Shown: positions 1 to 13,388, counted from the stretch's first letter. The stretch: 13,388 bases of DNA from an archaeon (GCA_035387745.1 DAOOON010000008.1:10037-23424); one strand, 5' to 3'. Translations and numbers: made by a program. The notes: generated by a model not told the origin, from the sequence alone.

Positions 1-1
1 T

Positions 2-84
2 GCAGAGGTGGCGGAGTGGTCAAACGCGCTAGCCTGCTAAGCTAGAGTCGAAAGACTACATGGGTTCAAATCCCATCCTCTGCG
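2..84 (+). tRNA. tRNA-Ser, anticodon GCU, class II (long variable arm), CCA not encoded
   Basis: Cloverleaf read by hand. Acceptor gcagagg (2-8) pairs with cctctgc (77-83), discriminator G84. D-stem gcg/cgc with loop gagtggtcaaa. Anticodon stem ctagc (29-33)/gctag (41-45), loop ctGCTaa, anticodon 36-38. Variable arm gtc-gaaa-gac. T-arm atggg-ttcaaat-cccat. A T-run (cttttt) follows directly. Confidence 0.93.
31..71. repeat. Left copy of a 41-bp perfect direct repeat (att-like), inside tRNA-Ser from the anticodon stem to the T-loop
   Basis: agcctgctaagctagagtcgaaagactacatgggttcaaat is identical at 31-71 and 911-951. Partial identity continues upstream (caaac at 21-25 and 901-905). Confidence 0.9.
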
Positions 85-324
85 CTTTTTATTCAAGTAA
101 GCATTTTGTTGTAAGTGAGCTTGTAGAGTGGATTAAAGGGAAGGACTTTGCTCACGACTACGAGACAGGACTAATTTCTAATATTTCTAGATTATTGTTG
201 AATAACGATAAAAGTATATATTTTTATTTTTCTAAGTGTATCTATTGTATGTTGTGTATGGTTAAATGGGATAGCAAGATATTTAAAGAGTTTTAGTCAG
301 TTAATAATATTTCGTGGTGGTAAT

Positions 325-981
325 TTGAAACACAACCAAAGAAAAGACAAATTTAATAGATTCTATAAAAGCAATTGGTTTATTATCTGGGTTGTGATTT
401 ATGGAATATTATATTATTTATCTACATTATTAATTACTGCTCTTGGAATTAGTAATTATTACATTAAAGTAATATTAATAGGAATATTAATTAGTATTAT
501 TGCAAGAGCAATATCCACTCATATACACAATTCTAATTTTAAGCTAAATTTTAATTTATTTATTTGGACATTAGTATATATTTTATTGTTATTTGGGTTT
601 AGATTTATATTATCTTATTTTGCCTTAAACCAATGGTTGGCTATTATTGTAATAGCATTAGGATTTTCAATATTTACTCATTTAATTAAAAAAATACCAT
701 TTGAAATTTTAGCGATAATTTGCATTATAATTTCTTGGATGTTTGCGGCGTTGTTATATGTAAATGAAAATGGATTTGATTTATCAAAATATATTTATAC
801 CAGTAATTCTTTATCTGAAAATTCAGATTTAAATCGCAATTCATTAAGATTAGCGTCAGGTAGTGGTTCTAAAGACTACACACCACACACTAACTACATA
901 CAAACTCATCAGCCTGCTAAGCTAGAGTCGAAAGACTACATGGGTTCAAATTTAATTATAAGTTATAGGCCTTTTATTTAG
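325..981 (+). CDS. Polytopic membrane protein of unknown family. Its last ~24 codons are encoded by the tRNA-derived repeat.
   Basis: A 218-codon ORF is long for this AT-rich DNA. TTG start preceded by ggtggtaat (SD-like). About six hydrophobic helices, then a Ser/Asn-rich tail ending ...QPAKLESKDYMGSNLIISYRPFI. A T6 run follows the stop. Confidence 0.6.
   Translation: MKHNQRKDKFNRFYKSNWFIIWVVIYGILYYLSTLLITALGISNYYIKVILIGILISIIARAISTHIHNSNFKLNFNLFIWTLVYILLLFGFRFILSYFALNQWLAIIVIALGFSIFTHLIKKIPFEILAIICIIISWMFAALLYVNENGFDLSKYIYTSNSLSENSDLNRNSLRLASGSGSKDYTPHTNYIQTHQPAKLESKDYMGSNLIISYRPFI
911..951. repeat. Right copy of the 41-bp direct repeat: a partial tRNA-Ser copy (att-like remnant) embedded in the 3' end of CDS 325..981
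   Basis: Exact 41/41 match to 31-71 at an offset of 880 bp. It lacks the acceptor and D arms, so it is not a functional tRNA. Confidence 0.9.
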
Positions 982-1017
982 GTTTTTTAAATATAACTAA
1001 TTGGTTTTATGTTTTCA

Positions 1018-1368
1018 CTACAAGGGGATTATAAAACCAGATAAAAAAGAAGCAAGATTCAGAACTATGGAAAGTAAAAGTAACTTTTTCTTATCTTTTT
1101 CTAAAACATAAAATAATATTTTCCATTCTACAAAAACAATTGTTATTTCAAGAACAATAGTTATTGCAAAAATTACATTATATACTATTTGGAAATTATA
1201 GCAAATAAGCAAAATGTAATTCAATAGCGGATTAGTAAGTAAATTTATTAAAAGAACAACGACTAGTGATTTCTTGTCTTTATAGCCAAAAAAGAAAGCA
1301 ATAATGCATTCAATTATAATTGTAAAAACTAATGCTATTAATAGATTTGTAATATATTGTGGGATCAT
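1018..1368 (-). CDS. Small 4-TM membrane protein (116 aa), unknown family; last gene of the 2851->1018 operon
   Basis: Its ATG overlaps the upstream stop (ATGA at 1365-1368). It has four hydrophobic segments with intramembrane Glu residues (IIIECII, LEITIVFVEW), an NLLTNP motif and no His. Confidence 0.65.
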   Translation of the reverse strand: MIPQYITNLLIALVFTIIIECIIAFFFGYKDKKSLVVVLLINLLTNPLLNYILLICYNFQIVYNVIFAITIVLEITIVFVEWKILFYVLEKDKKKLLLLSIVLNLASFLSGFIIPL

Positions 1369-1553
1369 GGTTTTTTAGTATTTAATAAGGTGTTTTTCTT
1401 AATTTTTAGTATAGATATAACAATAAACACAATTATTGTTATAACAACCCCAGGCAGAAGTATCCACAAAAAAATAATCTCTTCGGGGGTGTGTACAACA
1501 ACCCTATCGGCATAGGTAAAATTTAGTAATGCAAGAATTGCAGAAATCATCAA
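1365..1553 (-). CDS. Mini membrane peptide, paralog 2: signal peptide, YA|D cleavage-like site, one TM, Lys-rich tail
   Basis: Paralogous to 1584..1790, sharing LLN-x-x-YAD-x-V, TP-x-E-x-II and a TM followed by KIKK. The track start is TTG at 1553. The next codon (ending at 1550) is ATG and is the more likely start. Confidence 0.55.
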   Translation of the reverse strand: MMISAILALLNFTYADRVVVHTPEEIIFLWILLPGVVITIIVFIVISILKIKKNTLLNTKKP

Positions 1554-1583
1554 AATAAATTTATATTTTTTAATGTTATCGCC

Positions 1584-1790
1584 TTATTTTTTTGTGAGTT
1601 GTGCCTTGATTTTTTTTATTAGAAATATAGCAACACAGATAATCCCTACAACAACTGCCCCAACAATAATTATCGCAGCCACAGGGATTATATATTCAAA
1701 AGGCGTTGGAGCCAAAACCACATCTGCATAAATTATATTTAATAAAGATACTAGTCCAATTAAAACTAATAGCATTTTATTATTCATCAT
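1584..1790 (-). CDS. Mini membrane peptide, paralog 1: signal peptide, YA|D cleavage-like site, one TM, Lys-rich tail
   Basis: Its ATG overlaps the stop of the upstream transporter gene (ATGA at 1787-1790). The 68-aa product reads MMNNKMLLVLIGLVSLLNIIYA/DVVLAPTPFEY + TM + KKIKAQLTKK. Confidence 0.6.
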   Translation of the reverse strand: MMNNKMLLVLIGLVSLLNIIYADVVLAPTPFEYIIPVAAIIIVGAVVVGIICVAIFLIKKIKAQLTKK

Positions 1791-2851
1791 TTTTTATTCG
1801 CCTTATTATAATAGTTTAAACCAAAGTATATTACAACAGTAGAAATTAAAACCATTGCTAAAATTACAAAATTATTAGATAATGTGCTTTTTAAGCTTGT
1901 AAATGTAAAGATGGCGCCGATTTCTAAAGCAAGACAAGTTAAACCAAATGCAAATCCTGGTCTTCCTGGTAATGTGTTTGAGATTGCCACAAGAGTGATT
2001 GGCATAGTCATATTAAATAAGAACATCCCAAGGATTCCAAGCAAAGGATAATTTACTCCAAAAAACAATAATGGTGCAGAAACAAGTAAAGAGATTATTG
2101 CAACTCTTTTCCATCCAAATTTATCTCCTAAATAACCACCTAGTGCTTTTCCTAAGACCACGCCAAAAGTTAATGCAACAAGCAAAGATAATGTGGATTT
2201 CCAAGGAAAGATTATTGCTAAACCAACAATTGATCTTAAGGCAATTGTTAATAGTAATAGCAATAAAATTAATTCTAAATAATTGGTGTTGGTTTTACTA
2301 GTATCATAATCAATCTTAGGAGTTTTAATAATATACATTAAAAAACAAGCAACTAAAAGGCAAATTACAAAAGGCAATGCTGAGAAATTTCCAATTTTAC
2401 CTATAAGTGTTCCAACAAATAAGCCTAAGGCCCCAGGAGCCACAAATATTCCAGGCATTGTTGCTTTTCTATTGTCCAGATTAAGCGTTATTGTTCCTCC
2501 GCCAATATGGAAAAAAGCATTACCAATACCTGCAAGAATTATTGAGATAATTGGCGAAAATAAAACAAAAATAGCAGATAATCCAACAAGTATTGAACCA
2601 ATTACTGCTGACTCTCTAGGGCACTTATATTTATCAGTAAGTAATCCTATAAATGGTTGAAAACCAAAAGCTAATAGATTATAGAGAATTACTAATAAAA
2701 AAAGTGTAGAGGAATTAACTTTTTGTGTGAAATATAGATTAAAAATTACTGCTGCACAAGTTGCATCAATAAGGAAATGTGCCAAACTATAAACCATTAA
2801 ATTACCAAAAATATTTTTCTTAACAACTTGCATAAAATTTATAAGAAACAT
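1787..2851 (-). CDS. 12-TM transporter, MFS-like (short form)
   Basis: I count 12 hydrophobic segments arranged 6+6. Motif-A-like loops sit after TM2 (GLLTDKYKCPRE) and after TM8 (GGYLGDKFGWKRV), as in the major facilitator superfamily. A TATA-like tctatataaaa lies upstream. Confidence 0.55.
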   Translation of the reverse strand: MFLINFMQVVKKNIFGNLMVYSLAHFLIDATCAAVIFNLYFTQKVNSSTLFLLVILYNLLAFGFQPFIGLLTDKYKCPRESAVIGSILVGLSAIFVLFSPIISIILAGIGNAFFHIGGGTITLNLDNRKATMPGIFVAPGALGLFVGTLIGKIGNFSALPFVICLLVACFLMYIIKTPKIDYDTSKTNTNYLELILLLLLLTIALRSIVGLAIIFPWKSTLSLLVALTFGVVLGKALGGYLGDKFGWKRVAIISLLVSAPLLFFGVNYPLLGILGMFLFNMTMPITLVAISNTLPGRPGFAFGLTCLALEIGAIFTFTSLKSTLSNNFVILAMVLISTVVIYFGLNYYNKANKK

Positions 2852-2947
2852 AACCTTTTTATAAAGATAATAATTAGTTAGTTTATTTTATATAGAAAAC
2901 CATAGTTTTTTAAGCATAATCTCGTTTCTTATTTTTAGGTGATTAAA

Positions 2948-3142
2948 ATGTTTGAATGTATTAATAAGAAAATAAAAAAATATACCTGGAGACAAATTGC
3001 TTGTATTAAGCTTTCTGTTCTTTTCTTTACCTTAATGATTGCTAAGCTTTGGCCAGGAATCTTAGGGCTTAATTGGTATGTCTATATGATATTAGCAATA
3101 ATCTTTATGATTAGACCAATGATTATGCTTTTAAAAAAGTAG
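2948..3142 (+). CDS. Small 2-TM membrane protein (64 aa from the ATG)
   Basis: The track ORF starts at GTG 2939. However, AGGTGA (2936-2941) sits 6 nt before the in-frame ATG at 2948, so I prefer the ATG. Two hydrophobic helices and a KK tail. Confidence 0.5.
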   Translation: MFECINKKIKKYTWRQIACIKLSVLFFTLMIAKLWPGILGLNWYVYMILAIIFMIRPMIMLLKK

Positions 3143-3211
3143 TTTTTCAAATAAAATATCTTTAAATATATAATGTATAATTATATTGATACAAGAAAAA
3201 AAGGAGTAATT

Positions 3212-3472
3212 ATGTTAAAAAAAAAACAAGATTCTGATAAAATATTACAAGAAACCATCTATGGAACTGGCGGCATACCAAAAGAAGAACCAGGAGCAGT
3301 AACTGTTGGGAAAAGTAAAAGAAGAAGAAATGAACAAAACTTTTTTCAAAAGATCGTGAGCCCAAGAAAGATAGTTAGAGAAGAACACAAAGAGAAAAAG
3401 CCAGGCTTCTTTTCAAATCTATTTGGTCCAAAGTTTAAGAGAAGAAAAGGCAAAGGACTAGATGGTTTTTAG
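3212..3472 (+). CDS. Small, highly basic Lys/Arg-rich protein (86 aa), unknown function
   Basis: AAGGAG at 3201-3206 precedes ATG 3212, which I prefer over the track start at 3173. Its stop TAG abuts the next ATG (TAGATG at 3470-3475). Contains KSKRRRN and KFKRRKGKG clusters. Confidence 0.5.
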   Translation: MLKKKQDSDKILQETIYGTGGIPKEEPGAVTVGKSKRRRNEQNFFQKIVSPRKIVREEHKEKKPGFFSNLFGPKFKRRKGKGLDGF

Positions 3473-3844
3473 ATGACCAAAATAAACAAATTTATTTATT
3501 GGACACCAAGGATATTATCTATTCTTTTTATACTTTTTTTAGCCCTGTTTTCTTTAGATGTTATTACACCTGAAGCTAGCCTTAGTGAAATAATTATTGG
3601 TTTATTTATGCACAATATTCCGGTGTTTATTCTTACAGCAATACTTATAATTTCCTGGAAAAAAGAAATAGTTGGTGGCGTTATTTTTTGTCTTGCAGGG
3701 TTACTTTATCTTGTTAATGTTGTGATAACAATAATTAGAACCCCCCCTTTTGTGTGGCAGTATATCATTCCCATTTTATTGATTTCCGGGCCTGCTTTTC
3801 TTATTGGAATTTTATTTTTAATTGGCTGGTTTCAAAAGAAATAG
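3473..3844 (+). CDS. 4-TM membrane protein (123 aa), unknown family
   Basis: Its start abuts the preceding stop. It has four clear hydrophobic segments. Confidence 0.6.
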   Translation: MTKINKFIYWTPRILSILFILFLALFSLDVITPEASLSEIIIGLFMHNIPVFILTAILIISWKKEIVGGVIFCLAGLLYLVNVVITIIRTPPFVWQYIIPILLISGPAFLIGILFLIGWFQKK

Positions 3845-3847
3845 ATT

Positions 3848-5536
3848 TTAAGTTAATCTGTTATCTGGTGTTTCTGTAATTTCAAAGAAATTATTTAACT
3901 TATTATATAAGCAAGCAGTAATGGTTAGGCAATCGCTATTAGTTATACTCTCAATATCAGAATAACTTATATTTTTTTGGAAATAATCATTTAGTAAATC
4001 TGTGCCAATTTCAGGAATTATTGGAGTATACGATGGGTTATTATTTTGTATTTCTTGGTAAGCGTCTACTTTATCTTGTTGTTTTTGAAGTGATTTTTCT
4101 CGTTTTTCTTGTTCTAATTTATCTTGTTTTCTTTTATTTATAACAGCTGGTAATAATTCATTTATTTCATTACCTGATTTAGTAATCACGTTTCCAGAAA
4201 ATCCAAACATCTCTCTACATTCAAATTCAGTATCTTGATCTCCAATCCAAACTCTAAAATAACCTCCGTCTCCCCAGTGATCGCCAAAGCTATTTTTTAT
4301 AATCCAATATTCTTTGTTTCTTATTTTTTCTGTGCCCCAGCCAACCAGAAATAGTGCGTGGCCCATTGGTTCTGTATTTTTTTCAGAATTCAGTTTTTCC
4401 CACACCCCATGACCTGTAAACATCATTGAATCATAAAAGGCCATAGAAATAGCAACCGGCGTATGTTTTAATGCCTCTTTTATATTTTTTACAGTTTTTG
4501 AATTCTTTTTTTTGCAGTCAGTATTTTCAATTTCAATATAATTTTCTATAAAATATTTTGTCAAATTTTCTTGTTTTTTAGGAACAGTATATTTATATCT
4601 TACTGGGCTATCTAAACTGTCGTTATCCGATCCATCAGGACAGAGTTTACTATTTATTTCTGATGACGTAAATAATTCACTTATTGGAGAAATATTCATT
4701 CCACTCTTAGGAGTTTTAGATTTTTCTAATTTAATGATTTCACAAGAGTCGTAACTTACATATTTTAATTGTTCTTCTAATGGAACACCTAAAGGCACTT
4801 CTCCTACAGCTAAACTCAATTGTGTCTTTGTTATAAGCTTCCTTTTGGAATTTAATTTGTTGCTGTTGTTAAGTTCTGTATTTATTTTTTCTTTAAAATA
4901 GTTGTTTATATTTTGTGGGCTATATCCAGCCAAGGTTAATAAATTAATATAATACATAGAAATTTCCCCGCCGCACCCCATAAAACTACTATATGAGATA
5001 AGATACTGTTCTGATAAATTAATTCTTTTAGAACCAGTATAATTTAATTTTCTATTAATGTATCCCTCCATTGCACCCAATATTGAAAACGCTTTACAAG
5101 AACCGCAACTAATCTGTTCTTTTCCTGGAGTAATGTATTCTTTCCAATTTATTTCATCATTATATTCGTAAACCATCGGAGAAATAACTGCATCCGTTAA
5201 TAAAAAAAATCCTGTGTTTCCGGTTTTTTCTTTTTTTTGAGAATTAATGTCATCAGTATTTTGATTTTCAGGAAAAAATTCGTTTACATTGTCTATATTA
5301 AATATTTGTTTGTCGTTTGTATTGTATTCAGGGAATTCATAACCTAAAGGGATATTTAATATTTCGTCCGAATAATCTTTAGCAACCCAAGATGCGTTTT
5401 GTGCTCTTAATTGTTCATTAATAAGATCTGCACGCGTTGGGGTTTTATTTATAGAATAAACAGAGGCGAATATAAATACTCCGATAATTATTATTGTAAT
5501 AATTATTGCAAATATTGTGTTTCTTTTTTTGTTCAT
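3848..5536 (-). CDS. Membrane-anchored papain-like cysteine protease (peptidase family C1) with a large internal insertion and a C-terminal extension
   Basis: N-terminal TM anchor (residues ~8-27). The papain signature is present: QISCGSC-KAFS (Gln141, catalytic Cys147 at nt 5096-5098), GHALFLVGWG (His393 at nt 4358-4360) and YWIIKNSFGDHWGDGGYF (Asn415 at nt 4292-4294). A tttttatatatta TATA-like box lies ~20-30 nt upstream of the ATG. Confidence 0.85.
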   Translation of the reverse strand: MNKKRNTIFAIIITIIIIGVFIFASVYSINKTPTRADLINEQLRAQNASWVAKDYSDEILNIPLGYEFPEYNTNDKQIFNIDNVNEFFPENQNTDDINSQKKEKTGNTGFFLLTDAVISPMVYEYNDEINWKEYITPGKEQISCGSCKAFSILGAMEGYINRKLNYTGSKRINLSEQYLISYSSFMGCGGEISMYYINLLTLAGYSPQNINNYFKEKINTELNNSNKLNSKRKLITKTQLSLAVGEVPLGVPLEEQLKYVSYDSCEIIKLEKSKTPKSGMNISPISELFTSSEINSKLCPDGSDNDSLDSPVRYKYTVPKKQENLTKYFIENYIEIENTDCKKKNSKTVKNIKEALKHTPVAISMAFYDSMMFTGHGVWEKLNSEKNTEPMGHALFLVGWGTEKIRNKEYWIIKNSFGDHWGDGGYFRVWIGDQDTEFECREMFGFSGNVITKSGNEINELLPAVINKRKQDKLEQEKREKSLQKQQDKVDAYQEIQNNNPSYTPIIPEIGTDLLNDYFQKNISYSDIESITNSDCLTITACLYNKLNNFFEITETPDNRLT

Positions 5537-5618
5537 ATTTATTGTCTCTATATAATATATAAAAATGAATGTTTATAACTCTTTTTATCCTAAATTATAT
5601 ATTGTAGGTTTATTTCTC

Positions 5619-5701
5619 TCGGTTAACCATTGCGCGTGAGCCGAGCGAAACAGTAAAGTGCCATACAATATTGTAGCTGCGCGTTGACCGAGCGCAACCG
5701 G
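5619..5701. other. GC-rich structured island: two similar hairpins flanking a 12-bp palindrome. Candidate small RNA, tRNA-derived relic or operator.
   Basis: By hand count, 5618-5705 is about half G+C, against obviously AT-rich flanks. There is a 17-nt imperfect direct repeat, tgcgcgtGAGccgagcg (5631-5647) and tgcgcgtTGAccgagcg (5678-5694), 14/17 identical. Each copy can form a GC stem with a 9-nt loop. The palindrome tacaatattgta is at 5664-5675. An outer pairing tcggtt (5619-5624)/aaccgg (5696-5701) is possible. Confidence 0.3.
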
Positions 5702-7745: not shown

Positions 7746-9593
7746 TTATTCAATAATTTCCTTAGTTGCAGAGATTCTTTTTTCTGTAATTTTTTCGCCA
7801 ATAGGTATAAACCAAAGAAGTTTCCTTTGTTCTTTAACTTCAAAAACATATGTTGGAATCTCTGAAACAGTTTCTAGATTTATGTCTCCAACCACTTTTG
7901 AAATATCAATTTTGTTTTCTTGAAGCATTTGTGTAACAGGCATTATCTTTTTTACTTTATTGTCTTTAGTTACATATATTTCATCACTGTTTTTTACAGT
8001 TAGTTGTTTAGAATTTAGTGATTTTGTTTCAAGTGTTGAATTTGTATTTATAGATTCTATATTTTCATAGTTTATATCTGTAACTTCTGAGTTGAGGTTC
8101 TTATTTTTAACTTGTATTTGTTTTTGGGCCCTGGCATTTTCGGCTATTAGATTTGAGTTGTCTGAATCAACAATTAGATATCTTATTATGCCGGAGTTTA
8201 TACCCGTAAGTTTTTCTCCAGTTTTTGAGTCTATTGTAACTTCAAATTTAAGGGGAGTATCTATTCCACAAGAATTTACAAAGCCATCCATGTTATCTAA
8301 TGCAAATTCTTTAGAATCGTTTCCTTTAACATAACTAATTTTTCCTACAAACAGATTTTCTTTTGTTGAGCTTTTAAATAATTTTCTAGTAAAACAAGCG
8401 TTTTGATTATATTCGTTATAGAAATTTATTGTGGCAGTTTCAATTTCTGAAAAATTATTTTTTTCGGTTAATATTGTTAAATCAAGGTAATATCCTTCAT
8501 TTTTCTTTAAATGATGGGTTTTTGTTTCTGCATTAAAATAAGAACTAGAATTACAAATAGTCTTGTATTGTCCAGTATAGTTTGGGTCTATTTTTGCAGG
8601 CAATATTATCTTTGTTTTATCAATTGCACAAGGTATCTCTAGTTTATATGTATATTTAGAATCTGTTTGAGGGAGTGGTTTATCAGTAATTTTAACTGCA
8701 ATATCTGCATAATTACTAAAACTTATATAATCAGAATTGTCTGTAGTTGAAAGAGTTTCTTTATCTAATGTTATTCTTGAGCTATAAACAGTATTAACTT
8801 TTAGATTTGTATTTAAATAATTTTCAAAGATATTGTCTCCGCTTTCATAGGTTTCAATTGCATTTAAATTATTACCACTTATACTAATAGTTACTTCGTG
8901 TTTTAATCCAGGAGGTGTTGTGTTTGCTTTAATCTCTTTAATAGTTAAGGTATATCCGTCAATATCAAAGGCATCTCCAACCTTATAGACTGTCGTTTGT
9001 ATATTTCTGGAATTTATTTTTGCCCATTCTCCTATAGTTAAAGTATAGTTTTTTGGTTTTTCATTATAAGTGCTTGAAACCCTTTCTATTTCTTTAAAAA
9101 CCTCTGAATCAATTATATAAGAATAAGTATATTTATATTTCTCTTGTCCAGATTCTGATTCTGTAATAGATAATTTAAGATCTTTAATTACTTCATTATG
9201 ATTGTAATACGCGCCTAAAGGCATTAGTGTGTTTTGAGAATTTATTGCATTTACAACTAGAGATGAACCGATGTCTGCGATATTAGAAATATCTTTAGAA
9301 GCAGTAAAATATATATTTATCCTATATTCATTATTTGGATTAAGATATATTGGATTTTCGGAATTATCATATATTGGGCTCTGTGCTAGTACCTTTCCTG
9401 TGCTTAAATCAATTAATTCTTTATATGCGCCGGTTATTGTAACTGGAGAATTTAAATTATTAAATTTTATTTCTCGAGATTGTCCTTCATATATAGAATA
9501 ATATTCTGCAAACAACCTAGGGGATGTTGCGATAAGGAATATAGTTATTGCAAATATTGCAACTATAAAGTTTATTGTTTTTTTTATTTTCAT
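7746..9593 (-). CDS. Large secreted or surface protein (615 aa), beta-rich, Asn/Ser/Thr-rich, unknown family; possible PepSY-like C-terminal motif
   Basis: GGAGG lies 7 nt upstream of the ATG. The signal peptide is MKIKKTINFIVAIFAITIFLIATSPRLFA/EYY. There are no further TM segments. The C-terminus YVFEVKEQRKLLWFIPIGEKITEKRISATKEII loosely resembles PepSY. Confidence 0.7.
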   Translation of the reverse strand: MKIKKTINFIVAIFAITIFLIATSPRLFAEYYSIYEGQSREIKFNNLNSPVTITGAYKELIDLSTGKVLAQSPIYDNSENPIYLNPNNEYRINIYFTASKDISNIADIGSSLVVNAINSQNTLMPLGAYYNHNEVIKDLKLSITESESGQEKYKYTYSYIIDSEVFKEIERVSSTYNEKPKNYTLTIGEWAKINSRNIQTTVYKVGDAFDIDGYTLTIKEIKANTTPPGLKHEVTISISGNNLNAIETYESGDNIFENYLNTNLKVNTVYSSRITLDKETLSTTDNSDYISFSNYADIAVKITDKPLPQTDSKYTYKLEIPCAIDKTKIILPAKIDPNYTGQYKTICNSSSYFNAETKTHHLKKNEGYYLDLTILTEKNNFSEIETATINFYNEYNQNACFTRKLFKSSTKENLFVGKISYVKGNDSKEFALDNMDGFVNSCGIDTPLKFEVTIDSKTGEKLTGINSGIIRYLIVDSDNSNLIAENARAQKQIQVKNKNLNSEVTDINYENIESINTNSTLETKSLNSKQLTVKNSDEIYVTKDNKVKKIMPVTQMLQENKIDISKVVGDINLETVSEIPTYVFEVKEQRKLLWFIPIGEKITEKRISATKEIIE

Positions 9594-9870: not shown

Positions 9871-9949
9871 CAGGATTTAAAGGTAATTTGTGAAAAGTTT
9901 ATATATTTTTAGATGTAATATATTATATGTATAAAAAAGTGAAGAATTT

Positions 9950-12900
9950 ATGAAATATTCAAAAATAATATTAATTTGTATAATTTTCTTAATCTTGCCA
10001 TTTATATTTGCAGAAGAAGAAAGTGCCTCTGTAGTTGTGCCTTTGGCAATAAATGGAATAGAAGGAGAATTAGATATTTCAACAACCCCCTTAATTTTTC
10101 CAGAAACAGAACAAGATGAATCTTCAGACACCATAAATATTTTTACATCTATTGACAACAATTTAGGGTTTTCTCTTAATACACAACTAAATTATAAAAC
10201 ACTTGATATCCCTTATTATTTTTTAAAAGAAAATCAAAATCTTAAAAAAAGGATATATCCTTTTAATCAAGGCAGAACATATGTAATAAATAATTCCTCT
10301 CAGGAAATTACAAAAGACAAAACTCTAGAACTAAAATTAAATTTATCAGATACTACTCAAACCGTATATTTAGTTATTGATAATTTGCAGTCTAGCCAGA
10401 TACCAGAAATGAACCGATTTGTAAATGTCACATCTTCAACAATTGAAATAAATTCTGTTCCAAGATATCTTAAAATAAACAAAAGTGCCATTGCAAATAA
10501 TAAATTACTTTTAAATTTAAAAGCAAATATTACTAATTTTTCTTTTCAGATCATAGAAACAGATAATAACAAGAACGTAAACGGAATGTATAGTACAAAT
10601 ATTTTACAACTAGATTACGATTCTTTTAACAAATACGCTTTGTTTCAAATTAATCGTAACATTATAGAATTTTATTGCCCGTATTGTCATCTTAAAGACT
10701 ACGGAATTAATGAAAATGGCTTTTCTGCATGTGGGAAATCTGTCTTTGAAGAAGAAAAAAAGCCAATAACAGAATATTTGAGCGCCAAAGAAAATGTTTG
10801 TCTTTTGCCAGATGGTTCTAAAATTTCTGGCTTTACTAATGATTCTTTGGAAGTATTTGGTTTAGACAGATTGTATTTTGAATGGAATGACAAAATCCCC
10901 TCTGATCTTTTTGATTATGGAGAATATTATGTTGATCAAGACCAGTTTAGAATTGCGGTTTCAAAAAAGATAGACGCAATTACTAATAATAACTATATTG
11001 AAATAGGAAATATAAAATATAAGAAAGGCAAAAACAACTTAATTTCAAAAGCAGGAGTCTATATTGAACAAGACTTATCTAAAATAACTGATTTATCCAC
11101 TAATAATTCAATAATAGAATCTTTGGAATTTTCTATCGCGGTATTAAACTCTATTCCGGAAGAATATAGAAAATTAACCATTTTAGACTTAACAAATAAT
11201 GAGCCAGACGTTAGTGATTCAGAATTTAATAGATTGCTGCAAGAGATTTTAGGTGGTAATTATTATAAATTTACAGATTATCACACCCACCATCAAATAA
11301 CACTAGAAAAATATCTCTCTTCTATTAATAATTTTAAAGTTTCTAGAGTAAATAACGATATTTATTCTAAACTATTATATGGCTTAGAATACAAAACACA
11401 AGGTTATTCTAATATTTATTATTCTGAAGGGCTGAATTATTTTATATATAATATTAAACCATTTACAGAAGAAACAACCGGAATACTAAATAACGAACAC
11501 ACACAAATGTTTGGTAATTATTGGAAACTAAATTTAATAGATTTAAATAATACAATAGAACCAAAAACAGTAGTAGTAAATGTTTCAGAAATAACCCCTG
11601 AAAGTAAAAGAGCAAAAATAATTTTCAATAATCCTTCAACAAATTTATATGTAAATTATTATTTTGAAAATCAATATTTTTCTAGTAATCCATTATTTTT
11701 AAAAACAATAAATGCATTAAGTTATAATCGAGGCAATATTTTTGAAAATACCTCTTCTTTTACGTCTAAGCTTCCAGAAGTTATTCAGAACTATAATAAT
11801 CTACAAGATGGTTATATTGTTTCTATTGATTCTGTACATTCTGATTTTATAATTAATTTAACAAAACCAGTAATAATCACTAAAGGTGCAGGAGAAGAAA
11901 TTCTGGTTAAATATTATAATGGCAGAGAATATGTTAATTATACAAACAACCTCACAACTATAAATAACTCAAGAGAGGATTTCGCAACAAAAGAAACGCT
12001 TGTAATATACCCTCCAAAATCAGAAAATACAAATTATCCAATAATAATAGAATCACAAAGCCCTTTAATCTTTAATAGTGAGGTTTTTGAAAGCACAGAA
12101 AATGGAAAACACATATATAGATTAAATAAGGAAAATCAAAATTTAAGATTTCTTGAACTAATAAATGACGTATACAATAACGAAGCGTGCTTTTCAATTT
12201 CTGAAAACCAATTTTCGTTATGGAAAAATATAGACGAGGAATTGGATATTAAAAAGGCAGAGAGCTATTTGGAATTTGCAAGTGCTTTACAATATAATGT
12301 TGGCGAGTCTTTAGAGAATCAAATATCTCAAAATCAAAATTCACAACCAAACAATTCTTTTGCAGTATACACAATTGATGAGTCTCAAACACTATATAAA
12401 AATGCACAAGCAGTTAATACTTTTATTAAGACAGAAACAGATAATAGAAACTTAAACATATTAAAAGACTATAGCGAGGTTTATGAAAAAGCAATAGAAA
12501 GCGAACCAACATTATATAAAGAATTTAGAGATCTATTAAATTGCAATGAAACATTAATCTGTAGAATTTCTAAAACAAGATACACCCCGCAAGGATATTT
12601 TTTTGAGAGATTTAAAAACGTATGTGTTGATAATACTCCAACAGATTGTGTTAGTTTTTGGTCAAATCCAAAAGTGAATTATTGTTCTGCATTTGTTAGA
12701 AATTTTAATAATAATTTCTTTGGATATAGATTTGATTCAGCAGATGCTTGGGATTTAGCTAAACAACCAAATAATAAAAGTATCTGGAAAGCAACAACCG
12801 ATTCATTACAAGAAAAAGATTTTGATTTATTAATTCCCGGGTCAGTTCTTGGAATAAAGCATAATAATACAAGCTATAAAAATAAAGAATATAGCCATGT

Positions 12901-13388
12901 AGTTGTTTATCTTGGAAAAATTGGTTCAAGGCACTATATTATTCATTCTTGGGTAAATACGTTAAAAATAGAAAGATTAGATGTTTTCTTAAAAACTACA
13001 GCAAGAGGGAAAAATGCATATGGCTATTATGAAAATGGTCAAATAAAAGAAGTAATGATTTCAAATAATCTTAATCAAAAACTAATTGCAAAAGCCAGAG
13101 AGAACGGCATCTCTTTAGGGTCTGTGGATTCTTCTATTTATCAAGGCATTATCCCAGATTATATCTTTGATTCATTTAATAATAATAAAATGTTGTTAAC
13201 AAATATTGAAAATCCAAGTAATAATGCCGTATATCAAGAGCTTGAAGAAGTTTATAATAGAATATTACAAAAAGACTTTGATATTTATTATAAGACCAAT
13301 TACTATACAGAAGAATCTCCAGAAATTAACGAGAAAATAAGATTGGATTCTAATGAGCCAATGATTGTAATACTTGGCAAATACAAAA
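9950..13388 (+). CDS. Giant secreted protein, 5'-complete and 3'-truncated by the window end (>=1146 aa), with an NlpC/P60-like papain-fold Cys peptidase/amidase domain near residues ~900-1010
   Basis: I translated the frame from ATG 9950 and found it open to the window end. It is absent from the ORF track because it has no stop in the window. The signal peptide is MKYSKIILICIIFLILPFIFA/EEE. NlpC/P60 motifs: NYCSAFV (Cys912, nt 12683-12685), LIPGSVLG, YSHVVVYLG (His983, nt 12896-12898) and YIIHSW (His999, nt 12944-12946). Many N-x-S/T sequons are present. Confidence 0.85.
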   Translation, partial: MKYSKIILICIIFLILPFIFAEEESASVVVPLAINGIEGELDISTTPLIFPETEQDESSDTINIFTSIDNNLGFSLNTQLNYKTLDIPYYFLKENQNLKKRIYPFNQGRTYVINNSSQEITKDKTLELKLNLSDTTQTVYLVIDNLQSSQIPEMNRFVNVTSSTIEINSVPRYLKINKSAIANNKLLLNLKANITNFSFQIIETDNNKNVNGMYSTNILQLDYDSFNKYALFQINRNIIEFYCPYCHLKDYGINENGFSACGKSVFEEEKKPITEYLSAKENVCLLPDGSKISGFTNDSLEVFGLDRLYFEWNDKIPSDLFDYGEYYVDQDQFRIAVSKKIDAITNNNYIEIGNIKYKKGKNNLISKAGVYIEQDLSKITDLSTNNSIIESLEFSIAVLNSIPEEYRKLTILDLTNNEPDVSDSEFNRLLQEILGGNYYKFTDYHTHHQITLEKYLSSINNFKVSRVNNDIYSKLLYGLEYKTQGYSNIYYSEGLNYFIYNIKPFTEETTGILNNEHTQMFGNYWKLNLIDLNNTIEPKTVVVNVSEITPESKRAKIIFNNPSTNLYVNYYFENQYFSSNPLFLKTINALSYNRGNIFENTSSFTSKLPEVIQNYNNLQDGYIVSIDSVHSDFIINLTKPVIITKGAGEEILVKYYNGREYVNYTNNLTTINNSREDFATKETLVIYPPKSENTNYPIIIESQSPLIFNSEVFESTENGKHIYRLNKENQNLRFLELINDVYNNEACFSISENQFSLWKNIDEELDIKKAESYLEFASALQYNVGESLENQISQNQNSQPNNSFAVYTIDESQTLYKNAQAVNTFIKTETDNRNLNILKDYSEVYEKAIESEPTLYKEFRDLLNCNETLICRISKTRYTPQGYFFERFKNVCVDNTPTDCVSFWSNPKVNYCSAFVRNFNNNFFGYRFDSADAWDLAKQPNNKSIWKATTDSLQEKDFDLLIPGSVLGIKHNNTSYKNKEYSHVVVYLGKIGSRHYIIHSWVNTLKIERLDVFLKTTARGKNAYGYYENGQIKEVMISNNLNQKLIAKARENGISLGSVDSSIYQGIIPDYIFDSFNNNKMLLTNIENPSNNAVYQELEEVYNRILQKDFDIYYKTNYYTEESPEINEKIRLDSNEPMIVILGKYK

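Follow-up and report, generated by a model that had tools for sequence, protein, structure and literature searches.

The 880-bp cassette adjoining a tRNA-Ser(GCU) gene at the left end of the archaeal sequence GCA_035387745.1 DAOOON010000008.1:10037-23424 is very probably what is left of a small element with a split integrase gene (Pfam family PF16795), now dead and captured in the chromosome of a DPANN-type archaeon. The whole stretch analysed, referred to below as the window, is 13,388 nt long and AT-rich (approximately 27% G+C), and the host of the integrase family concerned appears to be of DPANN type. A first-pass annotation had noticed that part of the tRNA gene recurs on the far side of the cassette, that no recombinase is encoded between the copies and that two open reading frames (ORFs) would fuse in frame if the copies recombined, and had suggested either a mini-element mobilised in trans or a new kind of gene switched by integration. 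The structural observations hold, but the idea of a switched gene is not supported, as the tail that would be fused to the membrane protein of the cassette appears to be derived from an integrase and the protein searches returned no fused homologues. The cassette represents a new case of the decay product of a known archaeal integration system, not a new mechanism.

The tRNA gene itself is intact. It occupies positions 2-85 on the plus strand, is recognised by ARAGORN and by the Rfam tRNA model (66 bits), folds into a cloverleaf, and is identical at 84 of 84 positions to the tRNA gene of a contig lacking the cassette (L005). It doubles as the left attachment site (attL), made up of a 5' part from the host, the attachment (att) core and a 3' end supplied by the element. 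The core, at 31-71 on the plus strand, begins halfway through the anticodon stem, stops where the T loop ends, and recurs perfectly at 911-951 on the same strand (41/41 nt), as had been described. It clearly outranks every other direct repeat of the window; the families that follow have a reference length of at most 28 nt or an identity of 64-82%. To the left of the cores both copies also share CAAAC (21-25 and 901-905); to the right, identity ends abruptly at 71 and 951, inside the T loop, and the 14 nt of the T-stem 3' strand and acceptor 3' strand (72-85) have no second copy at the right attachment site (attR). In related elements on two other contigs (L001 and L024) attR is complete to the 3' end of the tRNA (5598-5655 in L001), and the core of the former, reaching that end, is 58 nt long. 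The intact tRNA gene, the direct repeat of its 3' part and the architecture of these relatives together uphold the earlier view that this is an attL/attR footprint of integration into a tRNA-Ser gene, with the caveat that the repeat ends at the T loop.

The tRNA gene is also a site of variation between assemblies. The window and contig L006 show only four differences over 12,851 bp, three of which fall in the tRNA-Ser gene (positions 60, 76 and 77). In L006, A60C and T76G constitute a compensatory T-stem pair and C77T leads to a G-U pair in the acceptor stem; the two att copies of L006 consequently differ at one position. These changes may represent a patch of recombination or gene conversion at att, or the mixing of strains during assembly.

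The reading frames across the repeats are likewise as first reported. A 218-aa ORF with a TTG start (325-981, plus strand), to which a near-identical protein exists in the protein database (P0001, for which no contig location was found), reads through the right copy, and the corresponding frame of the left copy stays open from position 33 to a stop codon at 294-296. Joining 325-951 to 72-296 gives 283 uninterrupted codons plus a stop. The remaining 28 nt (297-324, plus strand), containing GGTGG, form a spacer between the stop of the integrase (int) sequence and the start of the cargo gene; the layout of L001 is alike, with an int stop at 1683-1685, a cargo ATG at 1713 and GGGG between them. 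The estimate of about 8% stop codons was sound, with 8.4% expected from base composition and 5-8% observed per frame, and 75 open codons are indeed unlikely in random sequence. Neither Pfam nor PHROGs detected a recombinase domain in the segment or in the whole window, or matched the two cassette ORFs or the fused protein, and a hidden Markov model (HMM) of the PF16795-type family gave no catalytic-domain signal in the six-frame translation of the window, in agreement with the statement that the segment encodes no recombinase. Bacterial promoter and terminator scans of the window were uninformative.

The connection to an integrase, on which Pfam and PHROGs were silent, was found only through large protein searches. 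Comparison of the fused 283-aa protein with 5.8 billion proteins returned three matches, namely P0001, P0002 and P0003. The last is a 264-aa protein of family PF16795 ('archaeal phage integrase', SSV-type), matched with a database-wide E value of 2e-4, and its N-terminus, which aligns with window positions 105-185, has LFVVTELVEWIKSKKFAHDYETGLISKI where the window reads HFVVSELVEWIKGKDFAHDYETGLISNI. Similarity extends to the DNA: window 91-184 aligns ungapped with L001 877-970 at 80 of 94 positions (85%; score 59, against a mean of 8.6 and a standard deviation (sd) of 1.1 for shuffled sequences), and a second, collinear patch at 210-236 matches L001 1016-1043. A further integrase of the family, P0013, matches the window frame with a pairwise E value of 6e-16. 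Positions 72-236 (plus strand) appear to be a 5' remnant of the int(C) piece with its ancestral frame kept, which would also be the P' arm of the element's own attachment site, attP; and the tail at 72-296 appears, from these alignments, to be the beginning of a tyrosine integrase gene of the SSV type ('suicidal', PF16795). The improbable run of 75 open codons would then be explained as what survives of the start of int(C), still in its native frame. Integrases of the SSV type had been correctly named as precedent for genes split by their own att site and then dismissed on the grounds that the product here is a membrane protein, yet the tail seems to be the start of just such an integrase (P0003, P0013, L001). 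The frame is conserved as coding in relatives, but as part of a recombinase of approximately 300 aa and not of a membrane protein.

An intact element of this kind is found on L001 (JGI contig Ga0265294_10026343), where a perfect 58-nt direct repeat, running from the anticodon stem to the 3' end of a tRNA-Ser(GGA), is present at 814-871 and 5598-5655. The copies lie 4,784 bp apart and delimit, at 814-5655, a two-gene element in which the tRNA gene is followed by int(C), the gene of a 1,254-aa S8 peptidase, a short int(N) ORF reading into the right repeat, and attR. Joining the ends gives a single 309-aa ORF with PF16795 at residues 146-302. The P0003 gene directly follows tRNA-Ser(GGA) on three JGI contigs, L002 and L003 carrying the same integrase. 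At 4.8 kb, the L001 element is smaller than is usual among archaeal elements that bear an integrase. Relatives at the GCU-type site also exist: P0013 and P0009 start on tRNA-Ser(GCU) in L012 and L013, in which the tRNA genes are 95% identical to that of the window. Translation crosses the tRNA in one frame at GGA-type sites and in another at GCU-type sites, and a 1-nt indel just after the tRNA restores the common downstream frame.

Little of the gene survives in the window. A patch at 280-298 (plus strand) matches L001 1658-1676, the last int codons, at 18 of 19 nt (score 16.5; shuffle mean 9.1, sd 1.2, with 0 of 500 shuffles reaching the score), and is probably a remnant of the int 3' end that may also belong to the promoter region of the cargo gene. 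The corresponding match is not significant in the GCU-type relatives, where 37 of 500 shuffles reach the score for L012 and 191 of 500 for L013. The collinear 5' matches, the patch at 210-236 and the end at 280-298 therefore indicate an internal deletion: int retains roughly 165 nt on its 5' side and 20 nt at its 3' end, and about 610-640 bp between approximately 236 and 280, including the whole catalytic domain, are gone. The last codons of the tail are read out of the ancestral int frame. The 78-aa ORF recognised by ORF scan at 60-296 (plus strand), the ATG of which lies inside the T stem of the tRNA, can be read as an integrase pseudogene from which all PF16795 catalytic residues have disappeared; Pfam has no match to it, and the sole match of the family HMM in the window is this tail, at model positions 9-48 of 273. 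No catalytic-domain signal was obtained with the same HMM from the 25.7-kb contig L006 either. Lacking the PF16795 catalytic domain, the sequence is a remnant and not a functional member of the family. Some peptide motifs are nonetheless preserved, including the start 'MGSNPILC', common to the window ORF at 60-296, P0013 and P0009, and 'KSIYFY' further along the tail, common to P0030 and others.

A sequence of the form 'TATTTAAA(G/T)AGTTTTA' lies 30-60 nt ahead of the point where the cargo or membrane-protein gene starts, in the window (280-296) as in L001 (1658-1676) and L004 (approximately 1548-1575). This TATTTAAA motif overlaps the end of int where int exists, and it may be an archaeal TATA-type promoter, instead of or besides being int coding sequence.

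The other piece of the split gene, int(N), has left a trace at the right end of the cassette. Positions 856-910 (plus strand), in frame with the cargo ORF, appear to be an int(N) remnant and the P arm of attP. Window 861-903 matches L024 540-582 at 35 of 43 nt (score 23; shuffle mean 8.3, sd 1.1), and in L024 this sequence precedes a complete tRNA-Ser(GCU) attR; the match to L001 5564-5589 is weaker (20 of 26 nt). At the protein level, '...SGSTDYIYNTDYTQSFRPAKLESKDYTGSNPVLC' of P0082, encoded on L024, resembles '...SGSGSKDYTPHTNYIQTHQPAKLESKDYMGSN' of the window, and P0082 reads '...RPAKLESKDYTGSNPVLC' through the complete attR. The P0082 ORF (L024 400-669) is 89 aa long, its first 47 or so residues are ribbon-helix-helix-like by eye, with no match in Pfam, and its frame continues into int(N) and the complete tRNA-Ser(GCU) attR. 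It may represent an N-terminal DNA-binding domain present in some integrases of the family, or another accidental fusion. Three RACTAC(A) motifs were also seen in this part of the window, two in the P arm (874-880 and 892-898) and one in the variable arm of the tRNA-Ser copy (934-940); their spacing of 18 nt and 42 nt, counted by eye, is conserved in L024 (approximately 553-625) and L001 (approximately 5562-5633). They are common to three otherwise diverged elements and are candidate integrase binding sites. A 7-nt 'TTAATTA' following attR in both the window and L024 was judged to be due to chance.

The gene lying between these remnants is a truncated one, of which the N-terminal multi-pass membrane domain is left (325-780, plus strand). 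The cargo is 59% identical over 127 aa to P0002, a membrane protein of 397 aa that aligns with the N-terminal part of the fused protein only. An exhaustive HMMER search of 1.84 billion representatives with the window protein gave 21 matches besides its own cluster (P0001), approximately 15 of them to the membrane domain, while the others cover only the tail of the query. The better-scoring cargo homologues, at 283-591 aa, align solely to query residues 3-180 or thereabouts and continue into C-terminal domains of their own, leaving the window ORF with only about 150-180 homologous residues. Among the 21 matches, no homologue of the membrane domain has a PILCAF-like, tRNA-derived or integrase-derived tail. 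The Cys-rich tail of the earlier description seems to be an int remnant. As far as can be judged from such comparisons, the 218-aa ORF is a chimera in which a membrane domain is followed by what remains of int(N), by the att core in translation and by nine codons of flanking sequence. The membrane gene would have been the original cargo of the element, and expression of the ORF may continue, yielding a short membrane protein that ends in junk sequence.

These results bear directly on the hypothesis that the 283-aa fusion is a functional protein made from the circle only and turned off upon integration. It is true that the 283-codon frame is uninterrupted, and that P0082 of L024 is a second case in which an ORF lying upstream continues in frame into int(N) and att. 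However, the tail of the fusion looks to be integrase debris carrying an internal deletion, with its last codons outside the ancestral frame; no contiguous fused homologue of about 283 aa occurs among the protein-search matches; the fusion has no Pfam match; and the homologues of its membrane domain carry unrelated C-terminal domains. A switched gene of this kind is accordingly very hard to credit.

The interpretation as a decayed split-integrase element, by contrast with a switched gene, would account for each of these fragments. In an element whose attP is located within int, the gene would be split on recombination with the tRNA gene, so that the int(N) piece would end by reading into attR and int(C) would come to lie right after the reconstituted tRNA at attL. 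The anatomy of the cassette and of its intact relatives suggests that the ancestral circle most likely comprised int, one cargo gene and attP, and that it was inserted into tRNA-Ser(GCU). In-frame continuity across the repeats would then be owed to the old int frame through attP; an att site within the int ORF, with a continuous frame across the core, is what characterises an SSV-type element, and an att-flanked segment with a degenerate integrase, found at one site across strains, is what characterises a captured one. Three deletions would have followed. The first, of the 610-640 bp of int(C) described above, is evident from the alignment with L001. The second would have taken the C-terminal domain of the cargo with its stop codon and the start of int, thereby fusing the cargo in frame to int(N), as the lengths of the homologues suggest. 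The third would have taken from attR the final 14 nt of its tRNA copy, which are observed to be absent.

This last loss has consequences for mobility. Excision between the copies would release a complete attP on an 880-bp circle, and would leave tRNA positions 1-71 joined to 952 onward in the chromosome, in a tRNA deprived of the T-stem and acceptor 3' strands (72-85). As attR lacks 72-85, the att pair could not recombine to restore its target; because excision would break the tRNA, and there is no self-excision, the cassette is effectively locked in. It was nevertheless proposed that the cassette is a non-autonomous mini-element that is still mobile, which would need to be excised and re-integrated in trans by the complete integrase of a superinfecting relative, as the literature relates for the split elements SSV2 and pTN3. 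Both attP arms (P, 856-910, and P', 72-236) and the perfect 41-nt core have been kept, so the circle would carry a complete attP. Intact integrases are present on the 95%-identical tRNA-Ser(GCU) genes of L012, L013 and L024, whose accessions suggest the same ENA series, and exogenous related integrases can excise split elements (PMC8371274). Against this stand not only the truncation of tRNA-Ser(GCU) that excision would cause, but also the presence of the cassette at the same place in every assembly covering it, and the fact that the only cassette-free relative, L005, is not a recombinant of the repeats but lacks 94-2925. Furthermore, exact 41-mer scans turned up neither a second copy of the cassette nor a circle junction: there were no matches in GTDB genomes or IMG/VR and one in metagenomes (L005), these collections being incomplete, as the JGI contig L032 was not returned. 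Continued mobilisation in trans is improbable.

The comparison of assemblies also argues that the structure is genuine. The cassette is found at the same site in at least five assemblies, and is virtually identical (at least 99.97%) in independent ENA, JGI and Logan assemblies (L006, L032, L008 and L010); samples carrying the locus are those behind ENA ERZ27257431, SRR11845624, SRR11845627, SRR8925747 and JGI 3300009782; the contig of an NCBI metagenome-assembled genome (MAG), L007/L033, covers the region from 1112 onward only. The Logan contigs L008 and L010 both break inside the repeat, at window position 922, indicating that assemblers struggle there, and might be taken to favour an error of assembly, or else a partial duplication of the tRNA gene, whether by chance or segmental, that has nothing to do with any mobile element. 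Given that the same structure was assembled independently in ENA (L006) and JGI (L032) data, and that both flanks of the repeat are homologous to the integrase and attP arms of independent elements, such an origin has almost no probability.

Variation between strains at this locus is not confined to the cassette. In L005, 402-494 matches window 1-93 and 525-739 matches window 2926-3140, these flanks being 94-97% identical, and 94-2925 is missing; the 3' end of the L005 tRNA is followed by CTTATTCTTTTAATAC, and the gene at window position 2939 follows the tRNA after 38 bp. An empty site with the tRNA joined to 952 onward had been envisaged, but the gap in L005 does not fit the boundaries of the repeats and is not the product of recombination between them. 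The island at the tRNA is larger than 880 bp. The part of it beyond the cassette, at 952-2925, varies between strains and comprises four minus-strand genes for membrane proteins; it is absent from L005, and may have arrived in a second, earlier insertion or be host DNA that L005 has lost. No tRNA fragment or att was found at its edge near 2925, nor were further tRNA-Ser fragments found in any of the loci. Tandem integration of two elements was considered as an explanation of this block; as no int(C) or tRNA 3' end follows 951, it would need extra deletions. Another contig, L009, shares window 1028-3001 and diverges to the left of 1028, where it has a different convergent gene. L005 also has an additional 213-aa gene between the 67-aa and 99-aa genes (window 3142-3173), and the tRNA-Ser-proximal region appears hypervariable (94-2925 and 3142-3173) among strains that are 94-99% identical elsewhere.

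Several observations weigh against the view of the cassette as a captured and decayed split-integrase element. No catalytic residue is left, and the identification of the integrase rests on about 55 N-terminal codons and the 19-nt 3' patch, which is significant against L001 only. The attR ends in the T loop, requiring an extra, unobserved deletion. Close homologues of the cargo, P0068 and P0069, are found in ordinary chromosomal contexts without a tRNA gene or an integrase, and the analysis turned up no intact element of GCU type carrying this membrane cargo. The in-frame fusion of cargo and int(N) is paralleled in L024, so it may be a designed feature and not an accident. Finally, L005 lacks 952-2925 as well, and this block has no att on the side away from the cassette, implying a history beyond a single integration followed by decay.

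The family to which the remnant is assigned proved to be sizeable. A family search recovered 65 PF16795 clusters (P0003-P0067; loci L014-L023), many of whose proteins begin with peptides translated from the 3' halves of tRNA genes. The relatives in GTDB genomes belong to Candidatus Iainarchaeum, an 'uncultured archaeon' and Nanoarchaeota MAGs (DPANN), and none were found in IMG/VR. The gene lies directly 3' of a tRNA gene (Thr-GGT or Met-CAT) in six of the seven loci with upstream sequence; across the family the targets are Thr-GGT, Met-CAT, Ser-GGA and Ser-GCU, and the start of the gene nearly always falls on the tRNA or immediately behind it. Gene callers often place the start of the protein inside the tRNA, as with 'MGSNPILC', 'MVERNLGKVEVAGSIPARSL' and 'MVRTRSGVQIPSGA'. 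A more speculative and rather unlikely proposal is that the cassette and the L001 element belong to an undescribed population of two-gene 'suicidal-integrase' mini-elements of mesophilic DPANN archaea, which would ferry single genes for surface or membrane proteins into tRNA-Ser, tRNA-Thr and tRNA-Met genes, and whose integrase-less derivatives with a complete attP might still be moved in trans.

Further into the window lie genes for large predicted surface or membrane proteins, a content typical of DPANN-like genomes. A 562-aa papain-family (C1) peptidase, with what appears by eye to be an N-terminal membrane anchor, is encoded at 3848-5536 on the minus strand, a 615-aa orphan at 7746-9593 on the minus strand, and an ORF of at least 1,151 aa, without a match in Pfam or PHROGs, at 9935-13387 on the plus strand, where it runs off the end of the window.

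What looked like an exotic gene is, on this evidence, no more than the product of decay in an archaeal integration system that is already well described, and such decay leaves chimeric ORFs and tRNA fragments that are able to mislead annotation. The analysis also reveals that split integrases of PF16795 form a substantial family in AT-rich DPANN genomes, and that the elements carrying them can be as small as two genes. The SSV-type elements (SSV1, SSV2, pTN3 and pT26-2; PF16795) resemble the cassette in having attP inside int, a tRNA gene as target, int(C) following the tRNA and int(N) reading into attR, as well as in the translation of att as part of Int and in the switching of targets among class-II tRNAs with compensation of the frame, here between Ser-GGA and Ser-GCU. 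The partition of int, the trapping of elements, the presence of translated att in the Int protein and compensating changes of length near att by which frameshifts are avoided have all been reviewed (PMC8371274), and the same suicidal-integrase biology, with int split on integration, is described elsewhere (PMC7253208). The cassette differs in lacking the catalytic domain and the 3' end of attR, which makes it a fossil, and in the tiny size of the element, the intact relative having 4.8 kb and two genes. It differs from the SSV-type elements studied so far in its host as well, which has a G+C content of about 27% and appears, to judge by relatives in Candidatus Iainarchaeum MAGs, to be of DPANN type and not one of the thermophiles studied hitherto; suicidal integrases were regarded in the 2021 review as a feature of hyperthermophilic archaea (PMC8371274). 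Among the top-ranked papers retrieved by pairing 'suicidal integrase' with the names of DPANN lineages, the term 'suicidal integrase' does not occur.

The closest parallels outside the intact SSV-type elements are other kinds of trapped or defective integrants. 'Gene capture', reportedly described by She and colleagues in 2001 (Nature 409:478) and in 2004, both cited in PMC8371274, is said to involve elements bordered by tRNA-derived repeats that become trapped as their int fragments decay. The cassette is alike in its tRNA-derived repeats, decaying int and trapped cargo, but captured elements in Sulfolobus and other thermophiles span multiple kilobases, whereas the window has one truncated cargo gene within 880 bp. 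The cis-mobilisable elements (CIMEs) of streptococci are derivatives of integrative and conjugative elements that are flanked by att sites and have lost their recombination genes; they retain two functional att sites, and their excision restores the target. They resemble the cassette in being att-flanked without an integrase of their own, and the cassette departs from them in its truncated attR and in an excision that would break the tRNA. Small elements are also known from mesophilic Thaumarchaea, including NitEve-E3, with a split SSV1-like integrase, and the cryptic NitUzo-E2, of 2.6 kb (PMC6563490). These are similar to the cassette in their small size, few genes and mesophilic hosts; by contrast, they belong to a different phylum and have kept their integrase.

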